DNA of 61,756 nucleotides, from assembly GCA_001938485.1 (NCBI GenBank), contig MQRK01232830.1, forward strand, positions 1 through 61,756, written 5' to 3'. Positions 3,762-46,700 of the stretch are shown one piece after another. Origin of the DNA: Girardia tigrina (Eukaryota). Made by a program: the position numbers and the translations under genes. Positions within the stretch are counted from its first letter, which is position 1. The number at the start of each line of letters is the position of its first letter. The notes under the pieces were generated by a model. The model ran no database searches, had not been told where the DNA came from, and was given only the letters and a program-made list of their open reading frames with translations.

Positions 3762-6180
3762 TCACCACCCGGGGGAAGGGGTAGCCCGTTGCCATGGCAA
3801 CGGGTTCGGGTACCATAGCAACGGTTCCGATTGGTCCCCAGTACCTTGGGAACGCTTCTGATTGATTCCTGGATCCTTAGCAACGGTTTCGGTTCCCATG
3901 GCAACGATACAGTGACTCAAGGCGGTTTTAACCATGGTAACGGTTACCATATCCATAGCAACCGTGACCATATCACTAGGGACCGAAGAAAAAAGTGCTA
4001 ATCGATTGCTGCACGGTGCCAAGATGTGCTAATCGATATTTTAAAAGTGCTAATGGATAGTGAACATTGTGCCGCACATTTCTAATGTGCTAGCACAGTG
4101 CTTTTTAAGTTGCACATGTGCAAAAGTGCAAAAATCAATATATATAATTTTTTAAAAGTGCTAGTGTCAAAAATTGATATCATGTGTTTGATGCAAATTT
4201 TGATTCTCTATCTGAATGTGCAATTAGAATTTTTATATATTGATTACATTTTCCTATAATTAGCATAATGTGCAAATTTACACAAAGTGCACATTGATTT
4301 TAAAGGTACAAGGAAGCAGAATATCAAAAAAGTGCTGACGCACTTGAATAGTAACCCATATACATACATTCAGATTACATGTCAACATTTTCGAAAAAGT
4401 GCTGATAAATCGATTTTTTTCGAACATTTCTGAAATTATCAAAAAAGTGCTCAAAAATTGATTTTTTCATATATATATGAAACCCCTATGATATATGTAT
4501 GTTTTCTACCATTATACAATACCTCATGAATTGCCCAATGTACCTCATCATTACCGTAACCAAGATACATAACTTTTTATTTTACATGTAAAAACGACTT
4601 GTAAACACTCATATTGTACTTCAAACATGCATATACATTATACATAACATGTAAATGATCTGCTAAAGTATCTGAGCTTAGACATTAACCATCAAAACTA
4701 CCACGGTTGCCGTAACCATGATACATAATATTTTAATATTATATATATAGAAACAGTCGAAAACACCTTAGAAACCATCACTGTTATCTTAAAAACCATG
4801 AGAAACACCTTAAAAATCATGGAAAACATGTAAAACCGTCAAAATTACACATAAAAATCAATACTGCACTAAGCCTAGACAGGCTACACATGTGCTGCTT
4901 AGGCTGCACATGTGTTAATCAATATTACACATGTGCTAATCAATAATACATATTTGTAGCCTAGGCAGCCTACCTATGCTTAGTGCAAGTGTGCAAAATC
5001 AATAAGTTCATAATTGTACAAAGTGCAATATATTCATGTTTTAATATATAGTAAAAAGTGGGGTCGAACTCTCATAGGGTGTACATGTCCAAGGAAGCAA
5101 AATATTGAAAATCTATCTGAACACATGGATAGTAACCCATAAGTAAATAGATGGAATATGATCTTAGATTCTCGAAAAATCATTACATAGTGGTTTATTG
5201 AGATGTTGTGTTTTATAGTGTAAAGTGAGGGAGAATCCCCATAGGGTATAAAGGGTGAAGAAAGCAAAATATCAAAAATCTCTCTGAACTCATGAATAAG
5301 TAACTCATATATGAATAGTCAGATTCAATATCAACATTTTTGAAAAAATCGATGCTTAGTGCGCCTAGTGCTTTTTCGAACATATGCACATTATGTGTGC
5401 AAATATTATAAAAAAGAAATGTATTATATTATGATATTATGCTATGTTATCAACCAATATCGTATCAACCATTCAAAACATGGCCGTAGCCAAGGAGATA
5501 TCGTCATGCATCCATCATGTCAACGTATTGCATTCATCATGTCAACGTATTGCATTCATCATGTCAACGTATTGCATTCATTATATCAATACACAGCTGA
5601 ACATGTAAAAAATACAGGAAATGTGGAAATTGTCAGAAATTCGTTGTTTTTAATTGTTGATGCAAGTTGTATTGTTGTGTTAATAAATCTTGTAATAATT
5701 TAGTCTTGATTTTATATAAAATAGGTTAATACATTTGTTAAAATGGATATAGAAACACAAATGAAATATGTATTAGAGATAGTAAAGCTGAATTTAGAAA
5801 TGAATGGAGAAATGTACTTGTTAAAGTGTTGTACGTTAATAAATGTTTTACATATTACTTTGATTAACCTTTAATTGAATTAAAACGTAACAAGATTATA
5901 TAGAACAAACATTTACCTCAACAACCATCAAAATACCTTAACAACCATACTATCAACTATCACATTTACTATATATCAACCTTCAAATATACCTATCAAC
6001 TGCCAAATGTACCTCAACAACCATGAAACATCAAATATAACTTATCAACCATCAAATTTATCTAAACAACCATCAAAATTGACATATTAACCATCAAAGT
6101 ACCTTAAAAACCATACTATCAACCATCAAAATTATCATATACCTTATCAGACATATCATTAACCATAAATCCACTATAAA
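3762..6180. repeat. compound non-coding repeat element: X-box module, GTGC-rich tract, 3 copies of an about 110-170 bp unit, AACCATCAA-rich tail
   Basis: Palindrome CCCGTTGCCATGGCAACGGG at 3785-3804; unit AGGAAGCA.AATAT.AAAA...AGTAAC.CATA recurs near 4310, 5090 and 5258; an inverted homolog lies at 32620-33040. Confidence 0.65.
5513..5581 (+). repeat. 22-bp tandem repeat, 3 copies
   Basis: CATCATGTCAACGTATTGCATT three times in tandem. Confidence 0.95.
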
Positions 6181-6276
6181 TGGTGTTAATAGTGGAACAA
6201 TTTTCGTTCCATTCGTTTCGAAGGTGAATGCAGATACGACAGTCCCGAAAAATCAGTTAAACTGAAAGGGCACTGT

Positions 6277-8048
6277 TTGAGGAGTCGGAAGCAGTATGTG
6301 CCCTATGAGAATCAGACTGTAGCAGCTGCCGTTACACGAGAAGCGCCTGAAAGTGAGTGTCTCTTATCCCAATTTAGATGTGTGAATGATAGCAATAGAG
6401 ACAATATTATTAGTTTAGTGAAAGAATTCAGAGACGTATTTAGTTGGTCTAAATATGATATAGGCTTGGCGCGGAACGCTGAGCATAAAATAGAGCTTAA
6501 AGATAATGGGCCGATACAGGAGCAAACAAGGAGAATTCCGGTGGCGCTCCAAGAAAAAGTGGATGAGTTTGTTGAACAGTTGCTACAGAAAAATATTATT
6601 CAACCAAGTCTATCAGAGTGGAACGCTCCNNNNNNNNNNNNNNNNNNNNNNNNNNNNNNNNNNNNNNNNNNNNNNNNNNAAAATATTATTCAACCAAGTC
6701 TATCAGAGTGGAACGCTCCTATAGTGATTGTGTCAAAAAAGGACGGAGATATTCGACTTACAGTAGATTACCGGAGACTAAATCAAAAGACTAAAGTTTC
6801 ATCATTTCCAATTCCTGACGCACAACTTTTTGATACCTTGGTAGGAGCGAAACACTTTAGTACAATTGATTTGGCTGCAGGATATTATAACATAAGTCTT
6901 GCAGAGTGTGATAGAGAGAAAACAGCGTTTAGTACTAGAAAAGGACACTGGGAGTTTTTGAGGTNGCCAATGGGCTTAGCGGCAGCGCCGGCAACGTTCC
7001 AAAGAGTTATGAAAGCGATATTAAAGGAAGAAGACTGGAGGGAATGCTTGATATATTTGGATGATATTCTAGTTTTTGGGAAGACACAAGAGGAGCATTT
7101 AGTCGGACTGCGAAAAGTATTATACAAAATCAAAGAAGCCGGTCTAAAGATTGCACCAGCAAAGTGCCATTTTTTTGCAAGGGATGTAAAGTATCTGGGC
7201 CATAGAGTATCAGCTAATGGAATTTCAATGAACGAGGATAAAATCAAGTGCATTCAGGAGTGGCCACAGCCAGAGTCTCAAGATGAAATTAGAAAATTTC
7301 TTGGACTTTGCGGATACTATCGCAATTATATTAAAGAGTACGCCAAAATTGTTGCACCATTAGAAGACGCATGTAAAGACTGTTGGAACAAAGCTAGGAC
7401 TAGAAAATTACACCCGTCAGCCTGTCAATTGTCAGCCTGTTCGGGTGACGCATTTCTTCATTTGAAACAATGTTTAATGACTGCGCCAATTTTAGCAGTT
7501 CCGAATAGCTACGACCAATTCATATTGGATACGGATGCATGTGATAACACGATTGGATGCGCTCTTTCTCAAGTGCAAAGTGGTGATGAAAAAGTAATAG
7601 CCTACTCTTCGCATAAGTTGTCTACAGCAGAACAACATTATTGTGTGACACGAAAAGAGTTACTGAGTGTCTATAAATACACAAAAATGTTTAGACACTA
7701 TTTGGAAGAAGACTTAGTATAAGAACTGACCACAAAGCTCTATGCTGGATGATGAATAGGAAAACACTGAGTACAAGTCAATTTAGTGTCTATGATATGG
7801 ATATCCAATACCGGAAAGGAGAAGAATATAAGAATGCGGACGCTCTATCCCGAGCCCCAGAGCAATGCCAGCAATGTGCAATGAGCCACGAAAATCCGAA
7901 GGCAAAACGAAATGTTAAATATTACAATGAAAATAAAAATGATAAAAAAGCTGTTGTCTACTGCCGGCGGATAGCAATGGAAGAAGAAGAGGTCTGTCAG
8001 ACGGATGATAATAATCTGGCTTTGATAATTAAACTTATGAATGTTTGA
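6277..8048 (+). mobile_element. pol: Ty3/gypsy pol fragment (reverse transcriptase and RNase H), no LTRs seen
   Basis: Motifs SEWNAPIVIV, VDYRRLN, FSTIDLAAGY, PMGLAAAPATFQR, YLDDIL, FILDTDAC, RKELL, and NADALSR after a frameshift. Confidence 0.95.
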
Positions 8049-10152: not shown

Positions 10153-10591
10153 TGTGAGGAATATTTGAATGTTTGATGTTTTGTGTTTGAATGTGTATGT
10201 TGATTTGGAAATGTGTCTCTCCTACCCAGATGGATGATTAATATTTTAATTCTTATTATTTAAAAATTATGTAATGTTCAAATTTATTTTTAATTTCATA
10301 TAATTTTAAAATTTTAAATAAGTTAATTAATTTTTATAATATTTAATAAATAAATCAAATCAATATTTTTTAAATAATTAATTATCATTTTAATTATTAT
10401 CCAATAAGTTTGTGTAAATTTTTTATTTAAATATTTAGTTCCCTATTTTCTAAAAAAATAATGAGAATTGAACCATTAATCAATTTCGCTTTGAATTCAA
10501 TTGTACAAAAGTTTTGACAAAGATTGTCTTGAGGATAATCAAAATTGTTGTTTAAATAAAAATATAAAAAATCAAATTGGTGTTCTTAATA
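10153..10591 (+). repeat. 5' LTR (TG...TA)
   Basis: Direct repeat of 13825-14262 with roughly 15-20 differences counted by eye. Confidence 0.95.
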
Positions 10592-11767
10592 TGGCGACAC
10601 ACGACCACGTGACTCCGAATATCAAAGGTCCAGAAACATTCGACGGATCTGAGACGAAAGTGGAANNNNNNNNNNNNNNNNNNNNNNNNNNNNNNNNNNN
10701 NNNNNNNNNNNNNNNNNNNNNNNNNNNNNNNNNNNNNNNNNNNNNNNNNNNNNNNNNNNNNNNNNNNNNNNNNNNNNNNNNNNNNNNNNNNNNNNNNNNN
10801 NAAAAATTAAGAGCAGCGTTCTCCAAGGAAAAAACCGTATTAGATATAATGAAAGAAATGTTAGATTTGAGAATTGGCTCCAGCGATCCCACAATAATAT
10901 TTAGAAAGGCAGACGAACTAATAGAGAAATTGGTAGAGAAAAAGCTAGGTAAGAAAGAACTATCGAATTTAGTGTACGCTAACTTGATAGATGATGATGA
11001 TGTACAAAAACAAATAGCCATTCAAGGTATCACGAAATCTGATGAGATTGAAGAAATACAAACAAGAATGTTCGAACACGAGAAAAAGAAAAGNNNNNNN
11101 NNNNNNNNNNNNNNNNNNNNNNNNNNNNNNNNNNNNNNNNNNNAATCTGATGAGATTGAAGAAATACAAACAAGAATGTTCGAACACGAGAAAAAGAAAA
11201 GAAATGCACCAGTGGCAGCATATAATACAAAAAGAGAAAATGAATGGAAAACAGTGGAAAATTAAAAGAGAACAAGACCACGGAATAGAGAAATTCCAAA
11301 AGATACAAGAAGAAATTTTAGAGTCAGGAAAATTACTTGTTGGGCATGTCATGAAGAAGGACATGTTAGAAGAGATTGTCCAAATGTGACATGTAATCAT
11401 TGCAATAAAAAAGGACACATAANNNNNNNNNNNNNNNNNNNNNNNNNNNNNNNNNNNNNNNNNNNNNNNNNNNNNNNNNNNNNNNNNNNNNNNNNNNNNN
11501 NNNNNNNNNNNNNNNNNNNNNNNNNNNNNNNNNNNNNNNNNNNNNNNNNNNTACACAAATAGGAAATATTCAGTAGCGGAATTGGACGAATTAGACGATG
11601 AATTGTATGAAGGAGATAACTCTTCAAGACGGGGTTATACCGACGAAACCAATAGAAAAGAAGATTCTAAAAGACAGAAATATCCCAGAGGTTACAGAAA
11701 GTTCAGAGATGATCAGGGAAAAGAGGATGCACGATCACAGGGAGAGGTGATCAGTGTGCTTCATTAG
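10591..11767 (+). pseudogene. gag: gag (frameshifted, gapped) with two CCHC-type zinc knuckles
   Basis: MATHDHVTPNIKGPETFDG start homologous to the gag at 42539; CWACHEEGHVRRDC and CNHCNKKGH at about 11338-11420. Confidence 0.85.
11716..11759 (+). promoter_or_regulatory. -1 ribosomal frameshift signal between gag and pol
   Basis: G GGA AAA in gag phase, 6-nt spacer, hairpin GCAC-GATCAC/GTGATC-GTGC; the -1 frame is open into the pol ORF at 11785. Confidence 0.75.
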
Positions 11768-11784
11768 AAAGTCAATGCAGATGT

Positions 11785-13799
11785 ATGTTTGATTGTACAT
11801 ATGAATGTGTGTGTGATTGTATTTTTGATTGTATGTATGAGAATATTCCTCTAGAAATGTGTGAATTAGATAGTTTGAATAAAGAAAATAATGAAAAATG
11901 TGATAACATGGATATTGAAAAAGAAAGAAAGAAAAGAAATATTGCAACAGATATATTAAAAATAGCAAAGTTTGACATAAATTATAAAAATTTGAAAGGA
12001 CGGCCAAGTGTAGAATTTCGTATAAAAGATAAAAATGTTCAGTGTCTTTTAGATATAGGAGCCCGAGTGAATGTCATTAAAGCGGATTTAATCAAAGGTA
12101 TGAAAAAATATTCAGATTAGAGAAACAAGAAAGCGTATTCACTGTGCAAATGACTCACAACTTGTAAACTATGGGACTGTACAATTAAAGGTGATAATAG
12201 AAATGGTACAGAAAACAATAGAGTTTTATGTTGTCAAAGAAATAGATCCGGAAATGATTGCTGGTTTAGATTTTTTGGATAAATTTGGAATTAAACTGAA
12301 GAAAGAAACATCAAATATCGATAACATATTGGCTAATAGAGATAGCCCTTCTGATGAAGATAGATTGAAAAGAATAAGAGAATTGTACAATACTACAAGT
12401 GAAAATGAGCTAATGGAACTTTTAACAAATTACAGATCAATATTCATGGCTGATAAATGGGATATTGGAAAAACTTCGTTAACCAAACACAAGATAGAAA
12501 CGAATGGAGAACCAGTACTGGTAAAACCGTATAGACAACCGAAACATTTTGAAGAGAAACTAGATGATATTATAAAACACTGAAGAAAACGATATTATCG
12601 AAAAGTGTAGTTCTCCTTGGAACTTTCCTTTAGTATGTGTTTGGAAAAAAGAAAAGCAAGATATTCGAGTATGTGTAGATTTTCGTCAGTTAAATAAAAT
12701 AANNNNNNNACCAGCGTTTCCAATGCCAAATGTAGACGATATGTTGAATACACTAAATGGGGCAAAATACTTTAGTACTATCGATTTGGGAAACGCTTAC
12801 CATCAAGTAGAATTAGAAGATGAATCAAAGATTAAACGGCATTCGCAACAAAGTACGGTCAATACTGTTTCAAGAGAATGCCTTTTGGAATTGCTGCGGC
12901 TCCAGCAACTTTTCAGGAGCTAATGGTGAAAGTTTTGGGAGATTTGAATTGGAAAGAAGCAGTCGTATATTTGGATGATATTTTGATTTTCGCAAAAGAT
13001 AAGGAAGAACATCTTCAAAGAGTAAATAACGTATTTGAGAAGATTAAACAATCAGGTTTGAGAATAAATCCGGAAAAATGTCAATTTTTAGTAGAAAAGA
13101 CTAAATTCTTAGGATATATAATAAAAAAGATGGTATTGAAACAGATAAATCAAAGATTGACATCCATGTATATTTGCAATAATTGACCAGTTTAGTAGAT
13201 ATATTAGCTTGAATGCAGCAGCTAGTCAAGATGAAAAAACAGTTAGAAAATTGTTATTGGAAAGATTGATATGGAAGTTCGGACCACCAAAAGAAATCCA
13301 CGTAGACAGAGGAAAAACATTTGAATCGGCTTTGTTCAAGGATATGGCGAAAAAATTTAAAATTGAGGTATTTTATTCGAGTCCATATCATCATAACACC
13401 AATGGAATCGTGGAAAGACAGTTTCTCACGATCAGAGATGCTTTGAATATTAGAATGAAGGATGGAGATCATAAAGATTGGACAGAAGTCGAGTTTATGT
13501 TAAATAGTACTGTACAAGCTACGACAGGCATGTCACCGGCCGAGATAGTATTTGCAAGAAAACTGAGACATTGGTGGAAAAATAGTTACGAAGATAACAA
13601 AAATTTGAAAACAGTTGAACAAAAAACAGAGACAAGAAGAATTTTTGAAATCGGAGACAAAGTATTAATTAAGAAGGAAAATGTCTCAAACGAAGATGAC
13701 CGTTACATGGGTCCCACAACAGTGGTGAAAAGAAATCATGAAAGAAGTTACGAGTTAAAACTTGAAGATGGAAGAAGTTTTATTAGAAATGTTGAATAG
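11785..13799 (+). pseudogene. pol: pol: protease, RT and integrase core; RNase H and the integrase N-terminus are deleted
   Basis: LLDIGARVN, FSTIDLGNAY, MPFGIAAAPATFQ, YLDDIL, then a jump near 13160 to FAIIDQFSRY, HVDRGKTFES, SPYHHNTNGIVER. Confidence 0.92.
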
Positions 13800-13824
13800 C
13801 TAAAGCCATTTAAATCGATGGGGA

Positions 13825-14262
13825 TGTGAGGAATATTTGAATGTTTGATGTTTTGTGTTTGAATGTGTATGTTGATTTGGAATAGTGTCTCTCCTACCCA
13901 GATGGATGATTAATATTTTAATTCTTATTATTTAAAAATTATGTAATGTTTAAATTTATTTTTAATTTTATATAATTTTAAAATTTTAAATAAGTTATTT
14001 AATTTTATAATATTTAATAAATAAATCAAATTAATATTTTTTAAATAATTAATTATCATTTTAATTATTATCCAATAAGTTTTGAGTGAATATTTTATTT
14101 AAATATTTAGTTCCCCATTTTCTAAAAAAATAATGAGAATTAAACCATTAATCAATTTCGCTTTGAATGCAAATGTACGAAAGTTTTGACAAGATTGTCT
14201 TGAGGATAATCAAAATTGTTGTTTAAATAAAAATATAAAAAATCAAATTGGTGTTCTTAATA
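13825..14262 (+). repeat. 3' LTR (TG...TA)
   Basis: Follows the PPT; ends GGTGTTCTTAATA, then TSD CTTAG. Confidence 0.95.
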
Positions 14263-19272: not shown

Positions 19273-19836
19273 CAGTGCTTTCCAACCTGGGGTACGGGGG
19301 TACCCGTTACCATGGTAACGGTCGCGATTACCATGACAACGGTCGCGGTTACCATAGCAATGGACTTGATCACCTTAGCAACGGTCGCGGTTACCATTGC
19401 AACGGTCGCGATTACCATAGCAATGGTCGCGGTTACCATGTCAAAGGTCGCAATTACCTTAGCAATGGTCGCGGTTACCATAGCAACCGTTCCGATTCAC
19501 TTTGAAACGCTTCTGAATGGTTCCTGGTACTCTAGCAATGGTTCCGGTTCACTTGGCAACGCTTCTGATTGGTTACCGGTTCTGGTTCACTTGGTGACGG
19601 TAACCAAGGTCATGGTTACCATAGCCCTAGGCAGCAACGGTAACCAAGGGACGTTTTTCATTACACAAGTCTGTTGCAAGGGGGCATGCAGCTGTTTCCA
19701 AAATATCATTTTCGAATACAAACCAAAAAATTGAATAGGTGTCACATAAAAATGAATCAACAATTTGTTTTTTAAAGGGGGGCGTACCAATGTTTTTTTA
19801 AAAGGGGCACCAATACAAAAAGGTTGGAAACCACTG
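19273..19836. mobile_element. hAT (Charlie-like) MITE carrying a 21-bp X-box minisatellite
   Basis: TIR CAGTG(C/G)TTTCCAACCT, 8-bp TSD ATTTAAAT, nine 21-bp units at 19306-19494. Confidence 0.92.
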
Positions 19837-20222
19837 ATTTAAATATTTATAAATATAAAAATATTTATTACTATTCTTAATTAAATGTTAGATGAAAATG
19901 CATCTCAATTCAAATTTTGACCAAAGTAATTTTTAATGAAGCGATATTTTATACCTTTTTGAATGTATCATTTACTTTGCTGAAAACTGAATTTGTTGCT
20001 TATTGGTACAGAAATGCAAATCCGACGAAATATCCTTTAAAAAGGAACAGTTTTAAAGGAACTGTAACCTTAGTTGATCATGCAAAAATTGCAGAGATCA
20101 ACACTGTTGAATCCGAGAAAAATGGAGTTCAGACTTTGACTCTGAGATGTTTTAAATTCGATTTGAAATTCACAAATTAGAATAAATTAATTTGTTGCGA
20201 TCGAGAATCAATTATAAGACAA

Positions 20223-22079
20223 TAACATGCAATCCACAAATATAACATGCAGCAAACACAAAGAAAAAAGACGTTTAACAATATAACACATTTATTTGAG
20301 ACTAATCAAAACATTACATGAACCCGGAGATGATCTTCAATCCCCTTGCAGACCTACAGAACATTGAAAGTACCACACGAAAGCTAGAAATATAACATAA
20401 AGAAAATAGACAAAGTTGAATAAAAATCTATCCGATAACGGAAATTGAATAAGCACCCCTCTACAGTTAGAACATCATAAGGCACATTCGTGAAGGTGAT
20501 CCACCGGAAGATTACATCGTCTTGGAAGAATTTACAAACCTTAAAAGAATAAAAGTTAATTAAAAACGAACCCAAAAATGATAAAGTTCCTAACTGAGCT
20601 TCCCAGTAGATATAGGAGGTCATCCGATCCTCTCGAAGAGCTCTCATTGAGCTAAGTCCATGGGTGAGACCCGTGAGATGATAGCATATTCCCGAGCCAA
20701 GATATAACCCCTGAAAGATTTAGAAATTAATTAAAAATATAAAGAAAATTAATTAAGACTTACATGATTCATACCCCCACAGAGAAAATAAAATCACGCG
20801 ATGAATAAGCATTATTCATCAGTGACAAGCCGGCATTGTTTAGTGACGTATTACCTAAAAATAGTAACGACGACAAATTAGAATGAGAAATTAACAAATG
20901 AAAATGTAAAGTTACCAGCCCTGGCCAATCAGAAGAGGCCACGAAGAAAATGCATCACGACGAGACAAATAATACTGTTATAAATACAACAGTTACTCGG
21001 CAGTAAGACAGAAATATTGACAGAAGTTTAAAAACAAGTTTTGAAGTTTCAAGTTAAGAAGTTTTTCGAAGCGAAGTTGAAGCAACATTTACAAGATTTT
21101 CAATATTTTGAGAATCGAAACATCCTTAATCGGAAATATTTGCATCAGAAGTTAACGGAACAATTTGCAAGAGAAAACGATCAGCAATTTTCCTCCAACG
21201 AGTCTCAACATTGAATGTAAATTTTGTTATTGTAATTTTCGTATATCTTAATATATGTATAGTATGAGAATTGCTTTTTTATCTATATAGTAAATAAATA
21301 AAATATTTTTAATCGAGACTAAGTTTTAGGTAAGATAGCAAGCCAATCATTGTCGTTGATCGTTGTTCCAGCCGACCATGCCCCGACAAATTGACAAAGA
21401 GTGTGTTGAACCCATGATCCCAGAGAGGAGGACGAGATTGCGCCCCTCCCGGCACGTGAACAGTCTTCATAAAGACTAATTATTGTTAGGAACGAGAGAT
21501 AATAAATAATAAATTAAACCGCCCAACGCTTATGTTTGACTAAAGATGCGAAATGAGATGAACTGAGTAGCAATGAAAAATGAATGATTGTGATACTGAT
21601 AGCTAGACAAGAGATAACCGACGCGAAATAAATTGATAATTCGAGAGAGTAAATATAAATCTGTTGTTCATATAAAAATATAAAAATGATCTTTCATAAA
21701 GGTGTGGAGACAAACTAACCGCGATAGGTATATTAATACTTATTAATGACTTTAGATATACCACAACACAACATTGCCACAAGTCCAATGACATAAAACA
21801 CAGTGCCTCAAGTTCACATGCAGACACAACAGTGCCGCAAGTCTCGAACATTACATAGCGACGCTCCAAATTATGATCATCGACACATTTTATACCAGCA
21901 TGAGCGACACATTCACTAGAAAGAATATGTGCTTCCACAAACATTAAATCAACCCCGATCGATACTGACCTAGGCGGGGGGCCCATAGACCGTCCTGTCT
22001 TTAACCGAACCCGCAGGCCCTCCGAGTTTGGCACTGCTAGGCAGATGTCAAATAAGGAGAGGTGTCCGACCCGTGTACA
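20223..22079. mobile_element. long solo-LTR-like insertion containing a spliced antisense transcription unit
   Basis: GC-enriched block flanked by GACAA (20218-20222 and 22080-22084), ending TGTACA; CCAAT at 20925, TATAAATA at 20979 and AATAAA near 21293 on the plus strand. Confidence 0.55.
20314..20772 (-). CDS. putative spliced 93-aa protein of unknown function (coding exons 20772-20764, 20710-20591, 20539-20457, 20383-20314)
   Basis: GC-rich exons alternate with 51-73 bp pyrimidine-rich introns ending in AG; donors GTAAGT and GTAACT are canonical and two are degenerate; splicing keeps the frame to TAA, followed by AATAAA at 20291-20296. Confidence 0.45.
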
Positions 22080-22559
22080 GACAAACATATTAAAAGAATA
22101 AATAAATTAATTCATAAAATGACATTGGGTTGTGGTTGACCCTTAATAACCACTGTGTTCCAACTCGAGATGGGTCGTGACAAGTTGCAATGTTAATCTA
22201 ATGATAATTATTTTTGCATATCGCGAAATATAATTATGTTACTATTTGGTAGTAGTTTTCACATTTTTATCTAATAATTTATAGTCATAAATAAATATCG
22301 TCCTAAACGATTATTTTTTCAGAAAAATTGGAATAAAATGAGATATTACGTGATAGTCTTTGTCCTATGTAATTTATAATTGTCTAATGTCTATTAAAAA
22401 AATCCTAAGCAAGAAAAAACATAGATTGTTCTGAGTTTCAATTATAATGTGAAAAAAATCTGTTTTATTCAGACATTATTAATTTTGAGACAAAAATCAC
22501 GAAGCTATTCGTTTTAATTAAGTATATTTTTATAACACTAAGAATAGGGGTTTTTCAAA

Positions 22560-30789: not shown

Positions 30790-31563
30790 TAGCTCTATTC
30801 GGTAACCACTATTCTGGCCCAACATTACTCAGAGTTAGCTTAACGGTTCGCATCCATGAACAGACCACATTACCATTACCCGATACCATTATACACACAT
30901 GGACTAAGGAAAATATTATAAATAAAATAATTAAATTTTATTGAGCAACTTCAAATATTTTATACTGCAAACATTTTAAGATGAATCCTGAATACCCTGC
31001 GTAACCCTCTCATTGACATAAGATTACAACTGTTGTAACGAGGTCGCCAAACTTTCAACTCGATGTCCTTCATTATTCTACGTAAGCTTGTGCGTGGTAT
31101 ATGCAACTGCAAAATTGCACGAACTGCAGATGTTGATGGCGCATTCTGATAGAAAGTTCTAACATTTTCTTTATTTTCATCGGTATTCATATTGTTAGGG
31201 CGCCCACTTCTTTTCTTGTCGGTTACAGAGCCGGTCTCGTGAAACTTTTTAGCCAAAACATGCATTGATTGTCGTGATGGAGGAGCGTCATTAGGATACT
31301 CTTTTGCAAATGCTGCAGCTACAGCTCTTGAATTTCAATCATGCTTTATCCACTGCTTTACTATAAAAATTCGTTGCTGAAGTGTTAATTATCGTGCCTT
31401 GCCAATATTGCCAACAACAATGAACAAAATGAAATAATTTTAAAACTTTTTAAATAAATAATTATTAAAACAAACAATTTTATCTGGTTTTTGTTTATAA
31501 ATCATTTAGAATTTTGTGTTTATTATTATTAAAACTGGGTAAAGCGACTTATGGTCACCCCTG
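30790..31563 (-). mobile_element. Tc1/mariner-superfamily element, left end and N-terminal HTH region
   Basis: TA-CAGGGGTGACC terminus at 31563; QRIFIVKQW...KKFHETGSVTDKKRSGRP...SLRRIMKDIELK. Confidence 0.85.
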
Positions 31564-37139: not shown

Positions 37140-38190
37140 AAGTTCGTACAGCAAATATCCCAGTCGTTTGCCATGAATATGCCTTGATATTGGTGAATTA
37201 TTTCCTCTAGTGCTTTATCGTTTCGCGTATCGATCATTTTCAATGCTTCCTTTCCTCGTTCTTCGTGTATGATTCCTTTCCCAAATTTTGCATGGATTTC
37301 GTATATGTTGATTTTACTCGTATCCAGTTGTTTATCTTCTTTCCATAGTAGCTCTATTCCGAATTATTTTTAATGTCATGCCCCCAATCATATCTGGTCT
37401 TAAATTTTTTTACTATTATAAGCTATTTTACTATTATTTTCTATTTACTATAATTTTCTCTGATTTCTCCGCAATTTTTATCAGTGTCTCTATTTCTCCT
37501 CTAACATCCATTTGTAATTCATTTGCTGCTATCAATTTCTGATTTGTTTTTTCCATTCGTGTGCTCTTTAATTTCTTAATTATTTCTTCTGTCATCACGT
37601 TTAAGGCTGCTCCTGTATCTAATAGGCATTCAATTTCTGTGTCCTCAATCATGACTCTCATACTTGGTCGACCCTCTAATCTGTTGTATACAATTTGTAC
37701 ATTTTCATAATTAGTTATTATCAACAATTCTCTTTCATTATACGAGTCCTTTTTATGAACTTTACCACTTTGTGACTTGTTTTTGGTTCCTGATAGAAGT
37801 TCGGCTCACTAATGAATTCTGACTTATTTTTATTAATTTTATATTTCATGTTATTTATATTTAATTTATTATTTATTTTATTCATATTATTAAAATTATT
37901 ACTACTATATATGTAATTTATATGATCTGGTCTGTGCTTAAGAAAACTTACTCTAGTACCAAGATCGGTTCCTCGTCGTCAAGGGCAGGATTCGTTTTTT
38001 TATATATATTCTTGCTTTTCTCTGTATTTTTCCTTCTCCATCATCACAATCTGTCTTCCTCTTTCGAATCCTCTTCTGTAGTCGTCTGATTTCCGGTTTC
38101 CTGAGCTTTTCGTTTCAGCATCTGAGAATTGTCGGCTATCTCTTTGGGTTCTCCTTTGATAATCCGTTCTTCCTTGATATCGTTTTTGAA
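37140..38190 (-). mobile_element. gypsy gag-end and protease relic
   Basis: LEGRPSM...CLLDTGAALNVM; candidate slippery site A AAA AAC near 37995-38001 on the minus strand. Confidence 0.85.
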
Positions 38191-39559
38191 ATTTTTAAAG
38201 AACATTTTATTTGATGCATTAATGATTTTTTAAAGCTATTTTGATAAGCTCAGTTCAATATCTAAATAATTCTTATAAATGAACCAGTTTCAATACATTG
38301 TAGTAGAAAAAAGAAGTATTCAAAGAAACATTTATTGTTAGAAATTGATAATAACTAAAAAATATTATTTATTTAATTTCAAACATACATTTTAAATTAA
38401 ATTATTAGTATATTTAAAAAACTATTTTCACATTTTATTCTTTATGATAATAAATAATTTGCTTATTTTATTATTGCTAGATGTGAAGGGCACATCACTC
38501 GGGTGATAATAAAATCAGTCATTGACGCCAAAATTTTATTTCAACACGAATCACGATATTTATTTCTCTTTTTTCACCTACTTCCAGAATTTAAACAATG
38601 TATATTTTTATCTAATATACAGTTCAAACAAACTTATTTGAGTAACTGTTTTATAAATTGTTATCGATCTTAAACCGGAAATAAAATTATAATATTAATA
38701 TTGAATTTTAATTTAATTTTGTGAATTTTCGTTCCACAAAATTCTTTAAACTTATTTTATAACTTTCTAATTTCAAATGACCTTTAAAATCCGAAAAGAC
38801 AAAAAATAATATTTCAAATAATCTGTATGTTGAATATTTTTTCCAAATGGCCCTTCAGTTCCTAAATATTTTAAAACCTTTGAAATTAAGATAAAAAGAA
38901 ATAGTGGTTTATTAGAGAGGAAGTTTTTGAAGAAAATTGATAACATTTAATTTTACTAGGGAATAATTTTTAATTTTTACTTTCAATATAAATTTCAATC
39001 TAGATTTTGTCTGAAGTAAATAATGACTATTATTGCTTTATAAAAATTAATATAAAGTAAATGCTTAAGTATAAAATTAATGCTTCAGACTAGGTTAAAT
39101 TTAAAATATAATAAGAATATTTCATTTTGTTATTTTATTAATATATATTTCATTTTACCGATTTAACAGCATCCTCTTTTTTACAAAAATAGTCTCCTGT
39201 CTCCCTGATAAAAACAAAGACATTTATATAATTCATTTACCTTTTATTACCTTTGAGGAATTTCAAGAGAAACATTTTAAAAGAATAATAGATTAATCTG
39301 TTTCTATATCCCTCATTTGATACTCAGTCTTCTCGAAAAATGTATATTTCATTTTTTTAATTTATATGTATTTAAAATTTATTATTAAAATTATCTGCAT
39401 ATTTAAAATTTATCTGCATTTGCATGATGCAAATGTTTTCTATACTCTAATTGCATATCTTAACTATTCAAAAAGTTTAACCACGTTTGAAACTGTGATT
39501 TTATAGGTTTCTTCGTTGTCAACATGAATATTATTTCTTTGTAATCCGTTCTAAAAGTA

Positions 39560-41321
39560 AACTGTACCACATATGTAGTACTAAAAGTGTTGTGGGAAAA
39601 AATAAAATTGCTAACAACTACTTCCTTGGTATGCATTATCCAATTTCATGTTTACTCATAGCATGTAATCCATAAGCAAATACTTTTTTTCATATCCTTT
39701 GACATCTAACTAAGGAAAAACTGCACCAATCGTATTGTGACTTTCATCTGTATCTAAAATGAAATCTTTATTGAAATCAGAATATGTTTAGCACCGGTGT
39801 TTTTGTTAGAGGTTTCTTTAATTAACGAAATGATTTTTCACATTCATCGTTTTAAAAGAGTTTTATCTTGTTGTTTCCAAAAATAGTTTCTAGTTCCCTT
39901 GTCAGACTAAAGTAAGGTTTTATAAATTTTCTTTAATAATTACAAAGACCCAAAAAACGTCTAAATTGTTTAATACATTTCTGTCTTTCAAATGTTTTGA
40001 TTGGTTCTAACTTGCCTGGGTCGGTTCTAACTCCTCCTTCATCAATTATGTGACCTAAAAATTTTTTTTCCATTGTAAGAAATGACACTTCTCTGCATTT
40101 ATTTTAAGACCTGCACATTTAATTTTATCAAAAAAAATATTTAATTTTAAAAAATGTTCGTCCAGAATTTTTGAGAAAACAAGAATGTCATCTAAATAGA
40201 CCAACGCTACTTTCCAAAGCATTTCACCTAAAACAATATTCTTTAATCTTTGAATAGCTGCCAGAGCTGCAGCTATTTCGAATGGCAGGCGGTTAAAACA
40301 GCATATTTTGTAGCAAACGCCGTTTTCAGTTTTGTTTTTCATCTAACTCAAATTGGTAAAAGGTATTTCCCAAGTCGATTGTGATAAAAACACGAGTTCC
40401 ATTAAGAGAATCAAATATTTCTTCAATGTTAGGCATAGAGTATGCTGGTCTTTCTGTTAATTTATTTAACTGTCTAAAATCAAAATACAGTCTTTTTCTT
40501 GTTTGTCTTTTTTCCACACACGAACCATCGGTGTGTTTCACGGTGAATCGCATCGTTTGATAATTTTGTTATCCTCCAGATTTTTTATCATATCTTAAAT
40601 TTTATCTTCTAAATTTTCTGGTTGTCTTCTCGGTTTCATTAAAATCAAATTGTCTTTTTTATAATTTTATGTTTTAAAAGTTTTGTACAACCAACGTCCC
40701 ATTTATGTGCCATAAATACATTTTTATGTTTCGTTACTATTTCATATAAAGGAGAGTCAAATTTAACTTTCAACAAATAAAGAATATTTTCACCTTAATA
40801 TTAGGCATCGGCAGTCTAAATTTTGCACTAATACTGTATCTTTCACAACAATCGTTATAATCAAAACTATTTTCTTTATTATTTAGTTTTCCTTATCTAA
40901 TTTTAACTGAATTTTAAAAGCATTTAAAAATTCCATACTGCATAAAATATATGGAGTAACTTTTTCAGCAATATAAAATTTTATTATCTAATACATTTCA
41001 CCTATTTCTATTTTTAGAAAAACAATTCTTAATGTTTAAGGTACTTTCATTAGCACAAATAATATTTTCATTGCTATATGTTTTCGGATGTATTCCTAAT
41101 TTATTAGTTTCCTCTATTCCTATGACATTTAGTCGTGCACCCGTATCCGGTTTACATGAAAAATACTGATCATTACATTTAACTATTATTCGGAGTCGTC
41201 CATCAAGATTGTAATATTTAATTTTAAAATTACATAATCTTGTTTTTCCGCAGTTATCTTTTATTATTACAATACACCCATATTTTTTAACTTTTAACAT
41301 TTGAAATACATGCTTTAACAA
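39560..41321 (-). mobile_element. pol: gypsy pol relic (protease, RT, RNase H)
   Basis: LDGRL...DTGARLNVI, FDFRQLNK, FITIDLGNTFYQ, VYLDDILVFSK, FILDTDES; many frameshifts. Confidence 0.92.
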
Positions 41322-41369
41322 TATTTTTCAAAAGAGAAATAAATGTAGTGAATATAAGCAAAATAAAGT

Positions 41370-42010
41370 ATTCGTGAATAGGTTATCTAAATTGTACCAT
41401 AAGGGTACTAAGACTAAAATTAAAAATTATTAATGTCATTACGATCAAAAAACTAATAACGAAAACGGCCGATTGCGTAACACGTGGGGTTGTTTCATAT
41501 GAATACAAATTCATAAAATCTAGTTTAAATTACAGAGGTTTGGCAAATACCACTCTGAACATTTCATAAGACTCCACGATATTGGAATCCACTTTCTCAT
41601 AAATGGGAATTAAAACCTTTGAAATAAAGGCCTTCACCATAATTCTTTTGAGATTGGGATCTATGCCTAAAACTACAAAATATCTTCCGCATTCTTTGAT
41701 TATGCATTGGTCAGAGTTATTGTGGAAATTTCATCAACTTTGAGTTCTGTAGCGACTCTTCGTCAGGTTATTAGGCTAAAAAAGCTAACTTCAATTATCC
41801 TCCATTCTCTACTAGTCTCACAGAATCGATGATCCCTCTAAATTTGAAACTTACTATAAATTAACGATTACTTTTATTATATAATAGTGGTCAATGCGAT
41901 AAAAACATGATTATTATTTTCAGTACTAATCAATTTATTAAAACGTTACATGAATCTGAATATTGGATATGTGATGGTACATTCAAAGCATCCCCAACAT
42001 TGTTTCTCTT
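41370..42010 (+). mobile_element. Mutator/MULE transposase relic
   Basis: IIIFST...EYWICDGTFKASPTLF near 41910-42005, the W-x-x-DGTF motif of the MULE domain; upstream limit approximate. Confidence 0.7.
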
Positions 42011-42088
42011 TTTAACAAGTAAATTACATTCAAATTTTACAAGGCAGAGATTTAGATTACAGAAAAATTCAAAATAATCATTGGTAAG

Positions 42089-45000
42089 TGTGATGGATAA
42101 TTTGGAATGTTGTAAGTTTGTTGTTTGTATGCTGTTTACATTTGTGACTCTCCTACTCAGATGGGATTGATATGTTTATTGATTGATTATTTGAATCTAA
42201 TGAAATTAATTTAATGATATTAATTTTAAGTACTAATTAAGTAAAGTTTGATAATTATGAATTTTAATAATATTTTCAGTAAACAATTTTAACTTATTAA
42301 ATTTAATATATTTTAAAAATTAATGTTTATTTAAAAAAATATTTAATGTCTTTTTATCCAATAAAATTATGAGAAATTAAAATTTAATATTAAAATTTCC
42401 CATTCATTGTTCTTTTTAGATTTGAATACATTAACAAAAAACTATATCAATCAAAGAAAGATGACCTCTGAAAATTGTTGTGAAGGATATGTTTGTGTTG
42501 TCAATAAATGTTTGCATTCAAATTGTGATGTTGTTAATATGGCGACCACGGCTCATGTGATAACGAACATTATGGGATGTGAAAAATTCAATGGAACAGA
42601 ATCGGATTTGGAAGATTTCATTGATAATTTTGAACGCTATTCCGACATTATAAGTATAGCAGAAGAGAGGAAAATAGTGACTGTGTTTATGACACCGTCG
42701 GCAATAAAGAAATATTCAGAGATGGACGGTAAAAATTACAGAGAAAAATTGAAGGCTGCATTTACTAAAGAAAAATCCATTCTGGATACAATGAAGGAGT
42801 TGGTAAACTTACGGTGGGGATCCTTCAACAGAGAAGAAACATTCAAAAAAGCAAAAGAACTTATGAATATACTAACAAAAGTAAAATTGTCTAAAAAAGA
42901 ACTATTCAACCTTGCCTGTTCACAGTTATGAATTCAAAAAAGAATTAAGAATGAGAGGAACAACTGAAACCAAAGATATAAAAAGCGTAGTTACCAATAT
43001 GTACGAACTTCGTAAAATGGAAAGTTAGGAAACAGTGGCAGCATATACGACGATAAATAAACAAGATAATTGGAAAACCGTAACTAGACGCAAAGCTGTA
43101 CACAACGAAAGAACCCCAAATAGACATTACGAACACAACAATAGGAACCAAGGAAATAATGGATTCAAACTGAAAAACAATTATTACAGAACTGTAAAAT
43201 GTTATGCATGTCAAGAAGAAAGCCATATAAGAAGAGATTGCCAAAATGTGAAGTGTACACATTGCAACAGAAATGGCCATTATAGAACTCAATGTTATCT
43301 CAACAAGAATAGATTTAAGGAAAGAGAACAGTACAGTAGAAACAGCGATTGGAAAAAAATAATGCAGGATACCATAATAGACCTCAAAATCATCAAAACC
43401 CAGTTGCGGAAATTGATGAAAGCAATGACGACAGCGAATACGAAGAGACTAGATCAAATCAAGGAAAGTTAACTAAAAGGGTCTTCCCAGATAAGAGACG
43501 CTTATTTTTATTTGACTGTCAATTTGTTATCTTAATGATATTGGGTTTAATTGTGATCCAAATACCAATATTCTCATAATAAAGTAAAGACAGTCTCGTA
43601 AGAAAAGATTAAATAAAAAAAGAAGATCAAAAAATGAATAAAATGATCAAAAAAAATAAATAAAAAAAGATGCCAAATGGTACAAAATTAAATGATATAG
43701 AAAAAGAAAGATCAAAAAGAATGTTACTAAAATGGCATTTAAAGGATCTAACCACAACGTAAAATGTGGTTTTAAAAATGAAATATTTTCTGTTTTTGAT
43801 GGCGGTTTTATAATTGCTTTGTGTACGTAGGGGTTGCAAATTTGGATAAAATTTTGAAACCGATTTTTCGGTTTCCAGTTTCGTGAAAAACCGGAAACCG
43901 ATTTCTAACCGCTTTTTAAAAATTAATATATATTACCATTGTATAATTTTTTTACCCAAATTTTGGAAACAATACTTAAAACAAAATCAATTCAGCTTTA
44001 TGTCTAATGAATAATTCAGTCAAAAAGGATAGATAACAAAATAAAAATACTATTTTAACAATTAAAAAAATACAAATACCACAAAAACTTTATTTATTTT
44101 TCGATTCTAGAAAAAGCGATCTCATTAAACGTAACATGTTTATTGTGTCGTCACCTAGATATATATTTCCTTCCGCCGAAAACGTTCTTTCAGCTTACAC
44201 GCTTGTCGGTGGAATAGATAGAAGAAAATTATACACTCTCTCAAGTTCTGGGCCTCTAACCCCATCCAATTCGAACTGGGTCAACTCCCGGCGAACTTTA
44301 GTGTTTAGAATAGGAGCATTTTGGTCTTCTTTCTGTGGTTGAACCGTTAATTGATGGTCAATAGCTTTTTGTAACAAATGTTTCATCACATCCACCGTTG
44401 GTGGTTCACAGATTTCTTCTACAGATTGGAATAGTAATTGTTCATCTTCCCCTTCCATAATATCGCCATATCCTGACGAGATTTCTTCATGATTCGATTT
44501 ATTAGTCATTCTATTAAGAATTTGAACAATAAGTTTTAGAATCGATACTTTTGAAAGTTCGGAGAAAATATCAGCATGTGAATTATTTTCGGAATTGACA
44601 ACGTGGTATTTGTTATGAAGATACTGAAGTAAGCTAGATAAATCTGTTCGCCTTTCTTTAAATTGATATAATAGCTCCATTTTCATATCAAATGCCAGCT
44701 GGCCCCTACTTTTTTCCAAATGTGGAAGTATAAATTTGAAAGTCTCATCTATAGTCAAAAGGTTTGCATCTTGCCGACAAAGTCACTTGATTCCAAATTT
44801 TATAGGTAAAAGAACAGCAATAGTTTCTGATAGAAGTTTAAATTCAGCATCTGAAAAAGAATATGATGATTTCATATCGATTAACGATTTTTGAACGCAT
44901 GTTCGTAATTCATAAAAACGCTCGAACATAAAAGTAAACTGTTCTATCGCGTCTTAGTGTCCAAGACTTTTTTTTTCTTTTCCGAATTCTGATACAATAT

Positions 45001-46700
45001 ATTTTGAGAGAATATCTTCGTTTTTCACTAGTGAATTTCTAAAGGTTTTACAACTTTTCGTATCTTATGTATAAGAGGTAATAATCCTTTATGAGTAACT
45101 TCTTGATGATTATATTTATCATTCAAAACGCTAAAATTAATTTGGTCAGGATTTATTGCATTTATCAACAAGTCGCCATCATCGATGTCGAAATCGGAAT
45201 CGTTATATGTATCTTTCATATCCTTATTTTTTGTCTGTTCAAATTCAATGGAAATATTGGAGCTAGAAGATTTTTCTTTACAATATAACACGTTTAAAAT
45301 AGCCAAGTGGATTGTGTGTCTTGGATTGACAGACTAATATCAAACATCATTACCTTTTCTTCTAAGATCAATCCTAGATTCTAAAATTGTTGTTTAGTAT
45401 GAATGTTGATGTTTAAATAACGACGATTTGATATTGATATCCACTCATTGAAAGTCAAGCTAAAACCAAAAGCTCGCTTTTTCATGTCTGAGAGGTTTTT
45501 TTTAATTACATCGCAAATATTTTTACCATAATTTAACACCGTTTTCCGAATTGTATTTGACGATTGTGGTATATCTCGAAATCCTTTCGATTCAAGTAGC
45601 GATCTTAGATCAGATGATGTACAGAATAAAGAAAAGGCCATACCGTCTTTCGAGGTCATGCGTGATATAACCGCTGCCAAAGAATCGTCACTTTTCTTAT
45701 GAAAATATCCTGTAATTTGCTTTTTAGATAAAGAAATTTTGGTTGGTGACGTGGATAAATTTGTGGACGTTTTACTGCTTCCACTACAATCTTTAAATCC
45801 TCGTTTCAGAGCAGTAATTTTGTGTACTGTTTGCAAAGGTGAATGAAGTGCACCAGTTGATCCACAATTTCATTACTTTTGAATATGTTTTGCATTTCGC
45901 CACATGACCATTTTTCTCTCGAAGAAAATATACTCAAAGTGATTTGTCATTTTCAATAACTTTCTTGTATTCCTCAAATTTGTAATCCATACTTCTAAAA
46001 AACAATTATTAAAAATGAATTTAAAGGTCACACATTAATAATTTTCTTTACTTTTCCTTGATACTGAATTATAATTTATTTAATAAAAATGTGTTTAAAA
46101 TAAATATTTAAACAATTTTAAATAAAATAATGTATTTTATTGGAATTTTTAATAAAATTACGAAAACCGGGTTTTCGAGGTTTCAAAACAATGAAAAAAA
46201 CTGTTTTTTTCAAAACCGGAAAACCCGGTTTGCAATCCCTATGTGTACGTGATTTTTTTAAAAGAATTGTTTTAATGAAATGATTAATGCAAAAGATTTT
46301 TGGTGGAAAGTTAAATTTGTTTTAAATGGATGAAGGTATTATAAAATTGTTGGCGCAAATTTAAATACTTGAAAAATAAATTGATATTTGTCGCTGTTGT
46401 GTCTTTGAAAAATGTTTGGATTAGTAACATGCAAATTTGATGTAAAAATAAAAACATTGAAATCGTTATCGGTGGATTGCTATATAAATAATTTATATCA
46501 CGTACATCGGAATTTTTGTTTAAAAATGAAGAGGATAAAGATACAGAGGCGCTGTTTTCATTGACATAGGCAATAATTGTGTTGTGTATTACCTAGAGGC
46601 ACTAATCGATAATAAGACAATAATCGGAATATATAGAGAAGTAGAGGATGCAGAGAATGTACGAAGCAACGAAAGAAAAGGATCGTAAGGCTGTATGATA
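42089..46700 (+). mobile_element. gag: 5' portion of a second gypsy family (LTR 42089-42539, PBS, gag), interrupted by a hAT element
   Basis: LTR TGTGATGG...GTTGTTAATA, PBS TGGCGACCACG, gag MATTAHVITNIMGCEKFNG, knuckles CYACQEESHIRRDC and CTHCNRNGHYRTQC; 3' limit uncertain. Confidence 0.85.
43828..46241 (-). mobile_element. full-length but inactivated hAT transposon
   Basis: TIR TAGGG(A)TTGCAAA, perfect 8-bp TSD TGTGTACG, AAACCG subterminal repeats; FSLTFNEW, HLAI, DTKTR*NS, SIPPTSV*AERTFS. Confidence 0.96.

Follow-up and report, generated by a model that had tools for sequence, protein, structure and literature searches.

The closest described analogue of the structure reported here is the antisense introns of TART, a Drosophila telomeric non-LTR element that carries short antisense introns, many of them 53 to 67 nt long, in its terminal direct repeats and for which splicing has been shown by ESTs (PMC1636488). 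According to the same account, intron size and spacing are similar between subfamilies whose UTRs have diverged, and the spliced RNA lacks a long ORF (PMC1636488). The planarian unit described below is similar in these respects, but its splicing is only hinted at, and, unlike the TART introns, it lies wholly within the U3 region of an LTR, possesses a poly(A) signal of its own and has been dispersed in the form of solo LTRs. Antisense transcripts of the vertebrate deltaretroviruses BLV and HTLV-1 offer a second parallel and extend into the internal region of the provirus. BLV AS1 and AS2 and HTLV-1 HBZ are proviral antisense RNAs that are alternatively spliced and polyadenylated and whose coding potential is ambiguous (PMC4855707); the planarian unit, in contrast, has two to five mini-introns, is built of tandem modules, and ends inside U3. 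Dugesiid planarians host giant gypsy elements, Burro and GYPSM1 (PMC6431247), and LTR elements are main targets of planarian piRNAs (PMC8532177). In our literature search, no LTR was reported to contain in its U3 a complete antisense unit with several introns, and introns were described neither within LTRs in general nor in Burro LTRs in particular; the original description of Burro and its supplements, which may bear on the point, fell outside the scope of that search.

A 1,990-bp block in the window (the whole stretch of DNA analyzed, 61,756 nt of Girardia tigrina contig MQRK01232830.1) proved to be a genuine solo LTR belonging to a giant Burro-like gypsy family (Table 1). Its TG...CA ends are common to dispersed copies in a comparison of the genome with itself, which yielded at least 42 matches to the block (40 scored of 3,679 candidates), including, besides the window's own, four near-full copies that are 80 to 85% alike. 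The original prediction of a multicopy solo LTR is thereby upheld, with related LTRs adjoining a PBS and a PPT, but its ends at 20223 and 22079 are not, as copies extend past both and share ends at 20193 and 22182. The 5-bp repeat GACAA, which had been taken for the TSD, is present on the left in 9 of the 11 other copies that reach this position and is therefore internal to the LTR. The true TSD is 4 bp long, perfect in six of seven solo copies that have both ends and 5 bp long in none, and it differs from copy to copy; these TSDs and the copy boundaries together rule out the predicted limits. The window copy is old and decayed: its own TSD matches at three of four letters, the donor of intron 4 is absent, and exon B is one base short. 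One subfamily (L015, L017, L020, and L021) has a common stretch of ∼37 nt preceding the LTR start, resembling a duplicated terminus, and an additional module of ∼130 nt in U3.

Table 1. Features of the solo LTR and its antisense array (positions in the window)
Feature	Position	Strand	Basis or remark
Left 4-bp TSD	20189..20192	.	Three of four letters equal to 22183-22186
Solo LTR, 1,990 bp, TG...CA, imperfect terminal inverted repeat	20193..22182	+	Ends common to copies; orientation from PBS/PPT of relatives
Antisense poly(A) signal AATAAA (20296-20291) and downstream GT/T-rich tract	20250..20296	-	Motif also here in divergent subfamilies; use inferred
Exon D, last antisense exon	20291..20383	-	Length and frame vary among subfamilies
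Intron 4, 48 nt	20384..20431	-	Donor canonical in 19/21, absent in window copy
Exon C, 108 nt in 21/21 copies	20432..20539	-	Ancient duplicate of exon B
Intron 3, 55 nt	20540..20594	-	Donor GT 21/21
Exon B, 116 nt here, 117 nt in 17/21 copies	20595..20710	-	Copy alignment
Short inverted repeat site, GGTC-N4-GACC type	20618..20630	-	78-79 nt behind acceptor in most modules; imperfect here; weak
Intron 2, 53 nt, GTAAGT...CAG	20711..20763	-	Donor 18/21, acceptor 20/21
Exon A, 91 nt, family-wide motif	20764..20854	-	512 motif matches vs 0 control
Intron 1, 61 nt	20855..20915	-	Acceptor 21/21; donor 7/21, window's subfamily only
Likely promoter: CCAAT (20925), TATAAATA (20979), inverted repeat 20974-20993	20925..20993	+	Candidate from sequence
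Likely sense poly(A) signal, GT-rich tract (end of R), short U5 after	22097..22140	+	Inferred from sequence
Right 4-bp TSD	22183..22186	.	Comparison with left TSD

Evidence from relatives bears out the predicted sense orientation of the plus strand. The right end of the LTR followed by TGG gave 378 matches in the genome against 3 in the control, the same PBS adjoined this end in 20 of the 30 loci read (one of these a variant), and the PBS of related LTRs is complementary to host tRNA-Pro(TGG). At the opposite side, a short purine tract (PPT) followed by the left end of the LTR occurs in 88 places, compared with none in the control, and upstream of the PPT lies an internal end common to the relatives. 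With the PBS at the right end and the PPT at the left end, the plus strand is therefore the sense strand and the exon array lies in U3. The minus strand was rejected as LTR sense, the opposite end giving 130 TGG matches (7 in the control) with no common spacer among the matches listed; patterns of purine and pyrimidine tracts were uninformative on LTR orientation. The LTR-like layout predicted for the plus strand holds for the CCAAT and TATAAATA motifs and for a terminal CA, but the last lies at 22182. A palindrome of at least nine pairs accompanies the TATA region in 23 of 42 copies, compared with 2 of 333 control spots, and has eight pairs in the window copy.

Several observations concern the sense strand and LTR turnover. 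Two recurrent features lie on the plus strand at 21217-21330 and 21378-21479: a sense intron-like segment ∼240 nt past the TATA, present in 9 of 11 LTRs examined, and a sense ORF of 33 aa between an acceptor-like CAG and AATAAA, present in three of four copies belonging to the subfamily of the window copy. Among 30 loci (L231-L260), 29 have a near-identical internal 3′ end ahead of the PPT, whereas the U3 that follows varies widely, which suggests that U3 may be rapidly turned over or swapped. Relatives (L201-L217) hold a second PBS-like motif, TGGGGGC, ∼50 nt within the LTR 3′ end; the window copy, at 22140-22182, is without ∼27 nt there. The 3′ LTR segment gave a conserved fold signal.

Judged on the layout described for Burro, the parent is a giant Burro-like gypsy element. 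The two LTRs of contig C227859 match at 99.7% over 606 nt and at 97.1% over 748 nt; the ∼24 kb that separates them contains N gaps and disrupted reading frames. Pfam domains on this contig run in the order ubiquitin-like, Monjiviricetes fusion glycoprotein, protease, dUTPase, RT, RNase H, and integrase; the fusion glycoprotein (PF24664, E value 1e-25) lies between gag and protease, and both the dUTPase, between PR and RT (E value 0.003), and the ubiquitin match (E value 4e-5) fall under the curated cutoff. A weak CCHC knuckle was seen in another copy of the element. The likeness to Burro extends to the ∼29-kb size of the relatives and their LTRs, to a CCHC knuckle and a ubiquitin-like domain in a long polyprotein region, to a fusion glycoprotein of mononegavirus type that sits between gag and protease, to a dUTPase between PR and RT, and to accessory ORFs upstream (PMC6431247). 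Thus, the predicted Burro-like parent agrees with the domain layout of relatives, but the spliced accessory gene attributed to Burro does not appear in section 7 of PMC6431247, which likewise describes no LTR introns, antisense unit, or operon-like cassette. The frames scanned, which are part of all frames, gave no Pfam match to MATH, BIR, BCL2, or ankyrin; the Burro review used HHpred (PMC6431247).

The LTRs of related elements are 2.0 to 3.8 kb long and share with the window chiefly the last 240 nt of the LTR and the intron segments. LTR pairs around gag-pol, which the original prediction had led us to look for, occur in relatives (C227859) but were not found for the window's own subfamily, nor was a PBS- or PPT-linked copy of that subfamily found in the fragmented assembly; the PPT-linked LTR nearest to the window is 66% alike over 545 nt.

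At the level of sequence, U3 does contain the antisense array of exons and introns. GC-rich blocks (GC content, 0.37 to 0.51) alternate on the minus strand with T-rich segments of 48 to 61 nt (0.16 to 0.25), as had been predicted, and the antisense AATAAA expected near the left end was found at 20296-20291. Acceptor AG dinucleotides at 20856, 20712, 20541, and 20385 are kept in 21, 20, 17, and 17 of 21 near copies, the four copies that miss the AG at 20541 having one a column over, and donor GT dinucleotides at 20763, 20594, and 20431 are kept in 18, 21, and 19 of them. The window has all four acceptors proposed originally and two of the proposed donors, at 20915 and 20763, although GT at 20915 is confined to 7 of 21 copies (the window's subfamily). 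The remaining two proposed donors are not those of the family: GT occurs at 20590 in none and at 20456 in 7 of the 21 copies, the family donors being 20594 (21/21) and 20431 (19/21), of which the second is absent from the window copy. Six of the seven family splice sites are canonical in 17 to 20 of 20 copies and the seventh in 16 (mean, 18.6; L006, whose 3′ part is replaced, is left out of these counts), so the splice sites are better kept than other GT and AG positions, for which the medians are 16 (GT) and 13.5 (AG).

Between two subfamilies, introns are 88 to 92% alike and exons B to D 59 to 70%, although within subfamilies, too, the AT-rich introns mutate more slowly than the GC-rich exons. 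Distant subfamilies retain one to five intron-like segments together with the same poly(A) motif. The 22 PPT-linked LTRs contain 57 antisense and 4 sense intron-like segments, a ratio that is partly compositional because the plus strand of U3 is rich in A and the intron finder depends on T-rich segments. The exon A motif has 512 exact matches in the genome and none in the control. Exons B and C align with each other at a P value of ≤0.007 in four of five copies tested, and the array therefore grew by duplication of intron-plus-exon modules. Five host chaperonin introns, delimited by eye, are 45 to 56 nt long and AT-rich, with equally loose donors.

The array finds a hint of splicing, and only a hint, in one contig (depth, 2) from three small sequencing runs guessed to be RNA. 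This contig stems from a divergent relative and matches 20763-20807 with eight differences; it follows exon A and departs from the window exactly at the intron 2 donor, 20763, and its onward letters are not intron-like. No exon-exon joint was listed for it in these three runs. From these features we infer, with about even confidence, that the U3 array may yield a spliced, polyadenylated, noncoding antisense RNA that ends inside the LTR; both the splicing and the function of such an RNA belong to this inference.

The original prediction had instead been that U3 holds an accessory gene coding for a protein. U3 does indeed carry an intron-bearing unit in antisense, complete with a poly(A) signal, but the comparisons show neither a reading frame conserved among subfamilies nor purifying selection at the codon level. 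The proposed splice coordinates give exactly the quoted ORF of 93 aa; to do so, however, they need two donors foreign to the family (20590 and 20456) and an exon B that falls one base short of the length seen in 17 of 21 copies, and canonical sites leave a longest ORF of 50 aa in the window copy, so that the 93-aa protein was rejected. A wider form of the coding hypothesis, in which a fast-evolving accessory gene with corrected splice sites was lost in many sublineages and is supplied in trans, fits the internal exon lengths (mostly 108, 117, or 120 nt, with 38 of 63 divisible by three), the freedom of exon C from indels in 21 of 21 copies, and frame 0 of exon B, open in 19 of 20 near copies. 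Of 75 modules, 56 could be anchored, and in 54 of these the motif lies 78 to 79 nt from the acceptor; this offset and the spliced ORFs that are longer than those of shuffles at a P value of ≤0.05 in 7 of 39 copies point the same way.

Codon-level comparisons nevertheless make such a gene unlikely. Transition-weighted pN/pS was 0.90, 0.80, and 1.0 for exons B, C, and D and 1.16 for distant exon B (shuffle P values of 0.27 to 0.96), with controls of 0.76 for a sense ORF (P value of 0.025, itself weak) and 1.0 for U5. Among 21 module representatives of 55% mean identity, pN/pS was 1.10, stops interrupt 13, and variation was flat across codon positions (0.459, 0.445, and 0.439), with no third-position excess. 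Plain NG86 ratios of 0.5 to 0.64 were considered as a sign of selection and discarded, since they vanished after transition weighting and column shuffles. Frame 0 of exon C contains a stop in 13 of 20 copies, and the frame that is open in near exon B is a different one from the homologous frame that is open in the other modules. The longest spliced ORF starts in three different frames (22, 13, and 4 of 39 copies), and exon A is 91 or 92 nt long, so that the frame differs between subfamilies; no frame is kept among them. Stops and 1-nt length changes are common to several copies and were therefore inherited from active lineages; CpG decay was dismissed as the cause of the shared stops, being only mild (0.20 versus 0.15). 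Finally, the window's 111-aa open frame had no match in Pfam, Atlas, or the protein database.

A second alternative retains a spliced noncoding RNA and lets it act in trans, as a regulator or copy number brake that would pair with the U3 end of genomic RNA or bind a protein through the repeated hairpin, in the manner of BLV AS1. Splicing and polyadenylation would stabilize such an RNA, and the fixed spacing just described positions a repeated inverted repeat in which, on the antisense strand, G-U cells outnumber A-C cells by 28 to 4 of 210 (42 modules, placed by offset), counts that are not independent because the copies are related. Yet a 4-pair helix also arose in 43 of 200 column shuffles, a control that leaves out three off-register rows, and the inverted-repeat signal is weak; no conserved fold was found across whole exons (alifold P values of 0.05 to 0.7; mean z score, −0.45), and Rfam gave no match for the antisense cassette. 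We regard a trans-acting role as distinctly doubtful. Still less probable is that the array serves at the DNA level as an enhancer or a nucleosome-positioning repeat, with GC-rich blocks carrying a palindromic factor site, A-rich spacers, and splice-like signals that go unused: U3 normally carries enhancer repeats, and we take the GGTC-N4-GACC palindrome to resemble a pair of nuclear receptor half-sites, but a GT end, a T-tract with an AG end, and a TTAAT-type motif recur in two to five segments of each LTR across barely alignable subfamilies and are followed by a poly(A) signal, the break in the contig guessed to be RNA coincides with a donor, and A-to-G changes within the palindrome disrupt the half-site in DNA while keeping the RNA pair.

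If U3 does give rise to a spliced, polyadenylated, noncoding antisense RNA that ends inside the LTR, its production could be envisaged as follows. The LTR promoter, with its palindromic TATA region, would fire both ways; the backward transcript would be spliced like host mRNA, host introns also being ∼50 nt long and AT-rich, and cut at the AATAAA ∼100 nt from the 5′ end of the LTR. At the 3′ LTR, this cut would keep antisense RNA out of the body of the element, where double-stranded RNA or piRNA silencing could arise. The introns would survive reverse transcription because they face away from the genomic RNA, and through their survival each solo LTR would inherit the antisense cassette.

A broader proposal, which we put forward tentatively as a possibility more doubtful than the antisense RNA itself, is that these giant elements imitate the architecture of host genes. 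Every LTR would then carry in U3 a multi-intron, antisense, noncoding minigene, its architecture kept and its sequence turned over by module duplication, that steers divergent transcription away from piRNA silencing, and the interior would hold an operon-like row of ∼7 ORFs, every one of which has a separate acceptor and poly(A)-like signal. If so, solo LTRs would amount to thousands of spliced transcription units already in place. Were the splicing real, the family would allow one to see in nature whether a retroelement is shielded from small-RNA silencing by introns and early polyadenylation, and some multiexon “orphan genes” or long noncoding RNAs in such genomes would be solo LTRs.

The internal row consists of ∼7 separate sense ORFs of 105 to 187 aa between the PBS and gag of related elements (L226:2987-6670; also C227859, C212405, C223255, and others). 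An AG stands 0 to 4 nt before the ATG at 48 of 56 ORF starts, compared with 66 of 224 in the control, a poly(A)-like motif follows within 45 nt of the stop in 48 of 56 (a loose motif, counted with no control), and the ORF spacers are AT-rich and ∼100 nt long. Six ORFs scanned gave no Pfam family at the cutoff, and one relative, 92% alike, is present in the protein database. From its sequence features, the cassette looks like an operon that may be resolved by trans-splicing or by alternative splicing and polyadenylation.

Other repeats were noted in passing. The chaperonin family PF00118 has dozens of matches (G000) on many contigs, restricted to residues 1 to 82, which suggests a host gene fragment captured in a repeat. 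Further remains of mobile elements lie in the window at 6193-8048, 10153-14192, 30960-31334, 37434-43472, and 44195-45869; we take them to be gypsy pol, a gypsy element, mariner-like and hAT-like transposase fragments, and more gag/protease pieces. One gypsy element among them has an LTR pair that is 97% alike and 3,672 nt apart. A family of 21-nt tandem repeats, rich in CCATGGCAAC-like units, is present twice in the window, at 19299-19570 and at 3789-3972.
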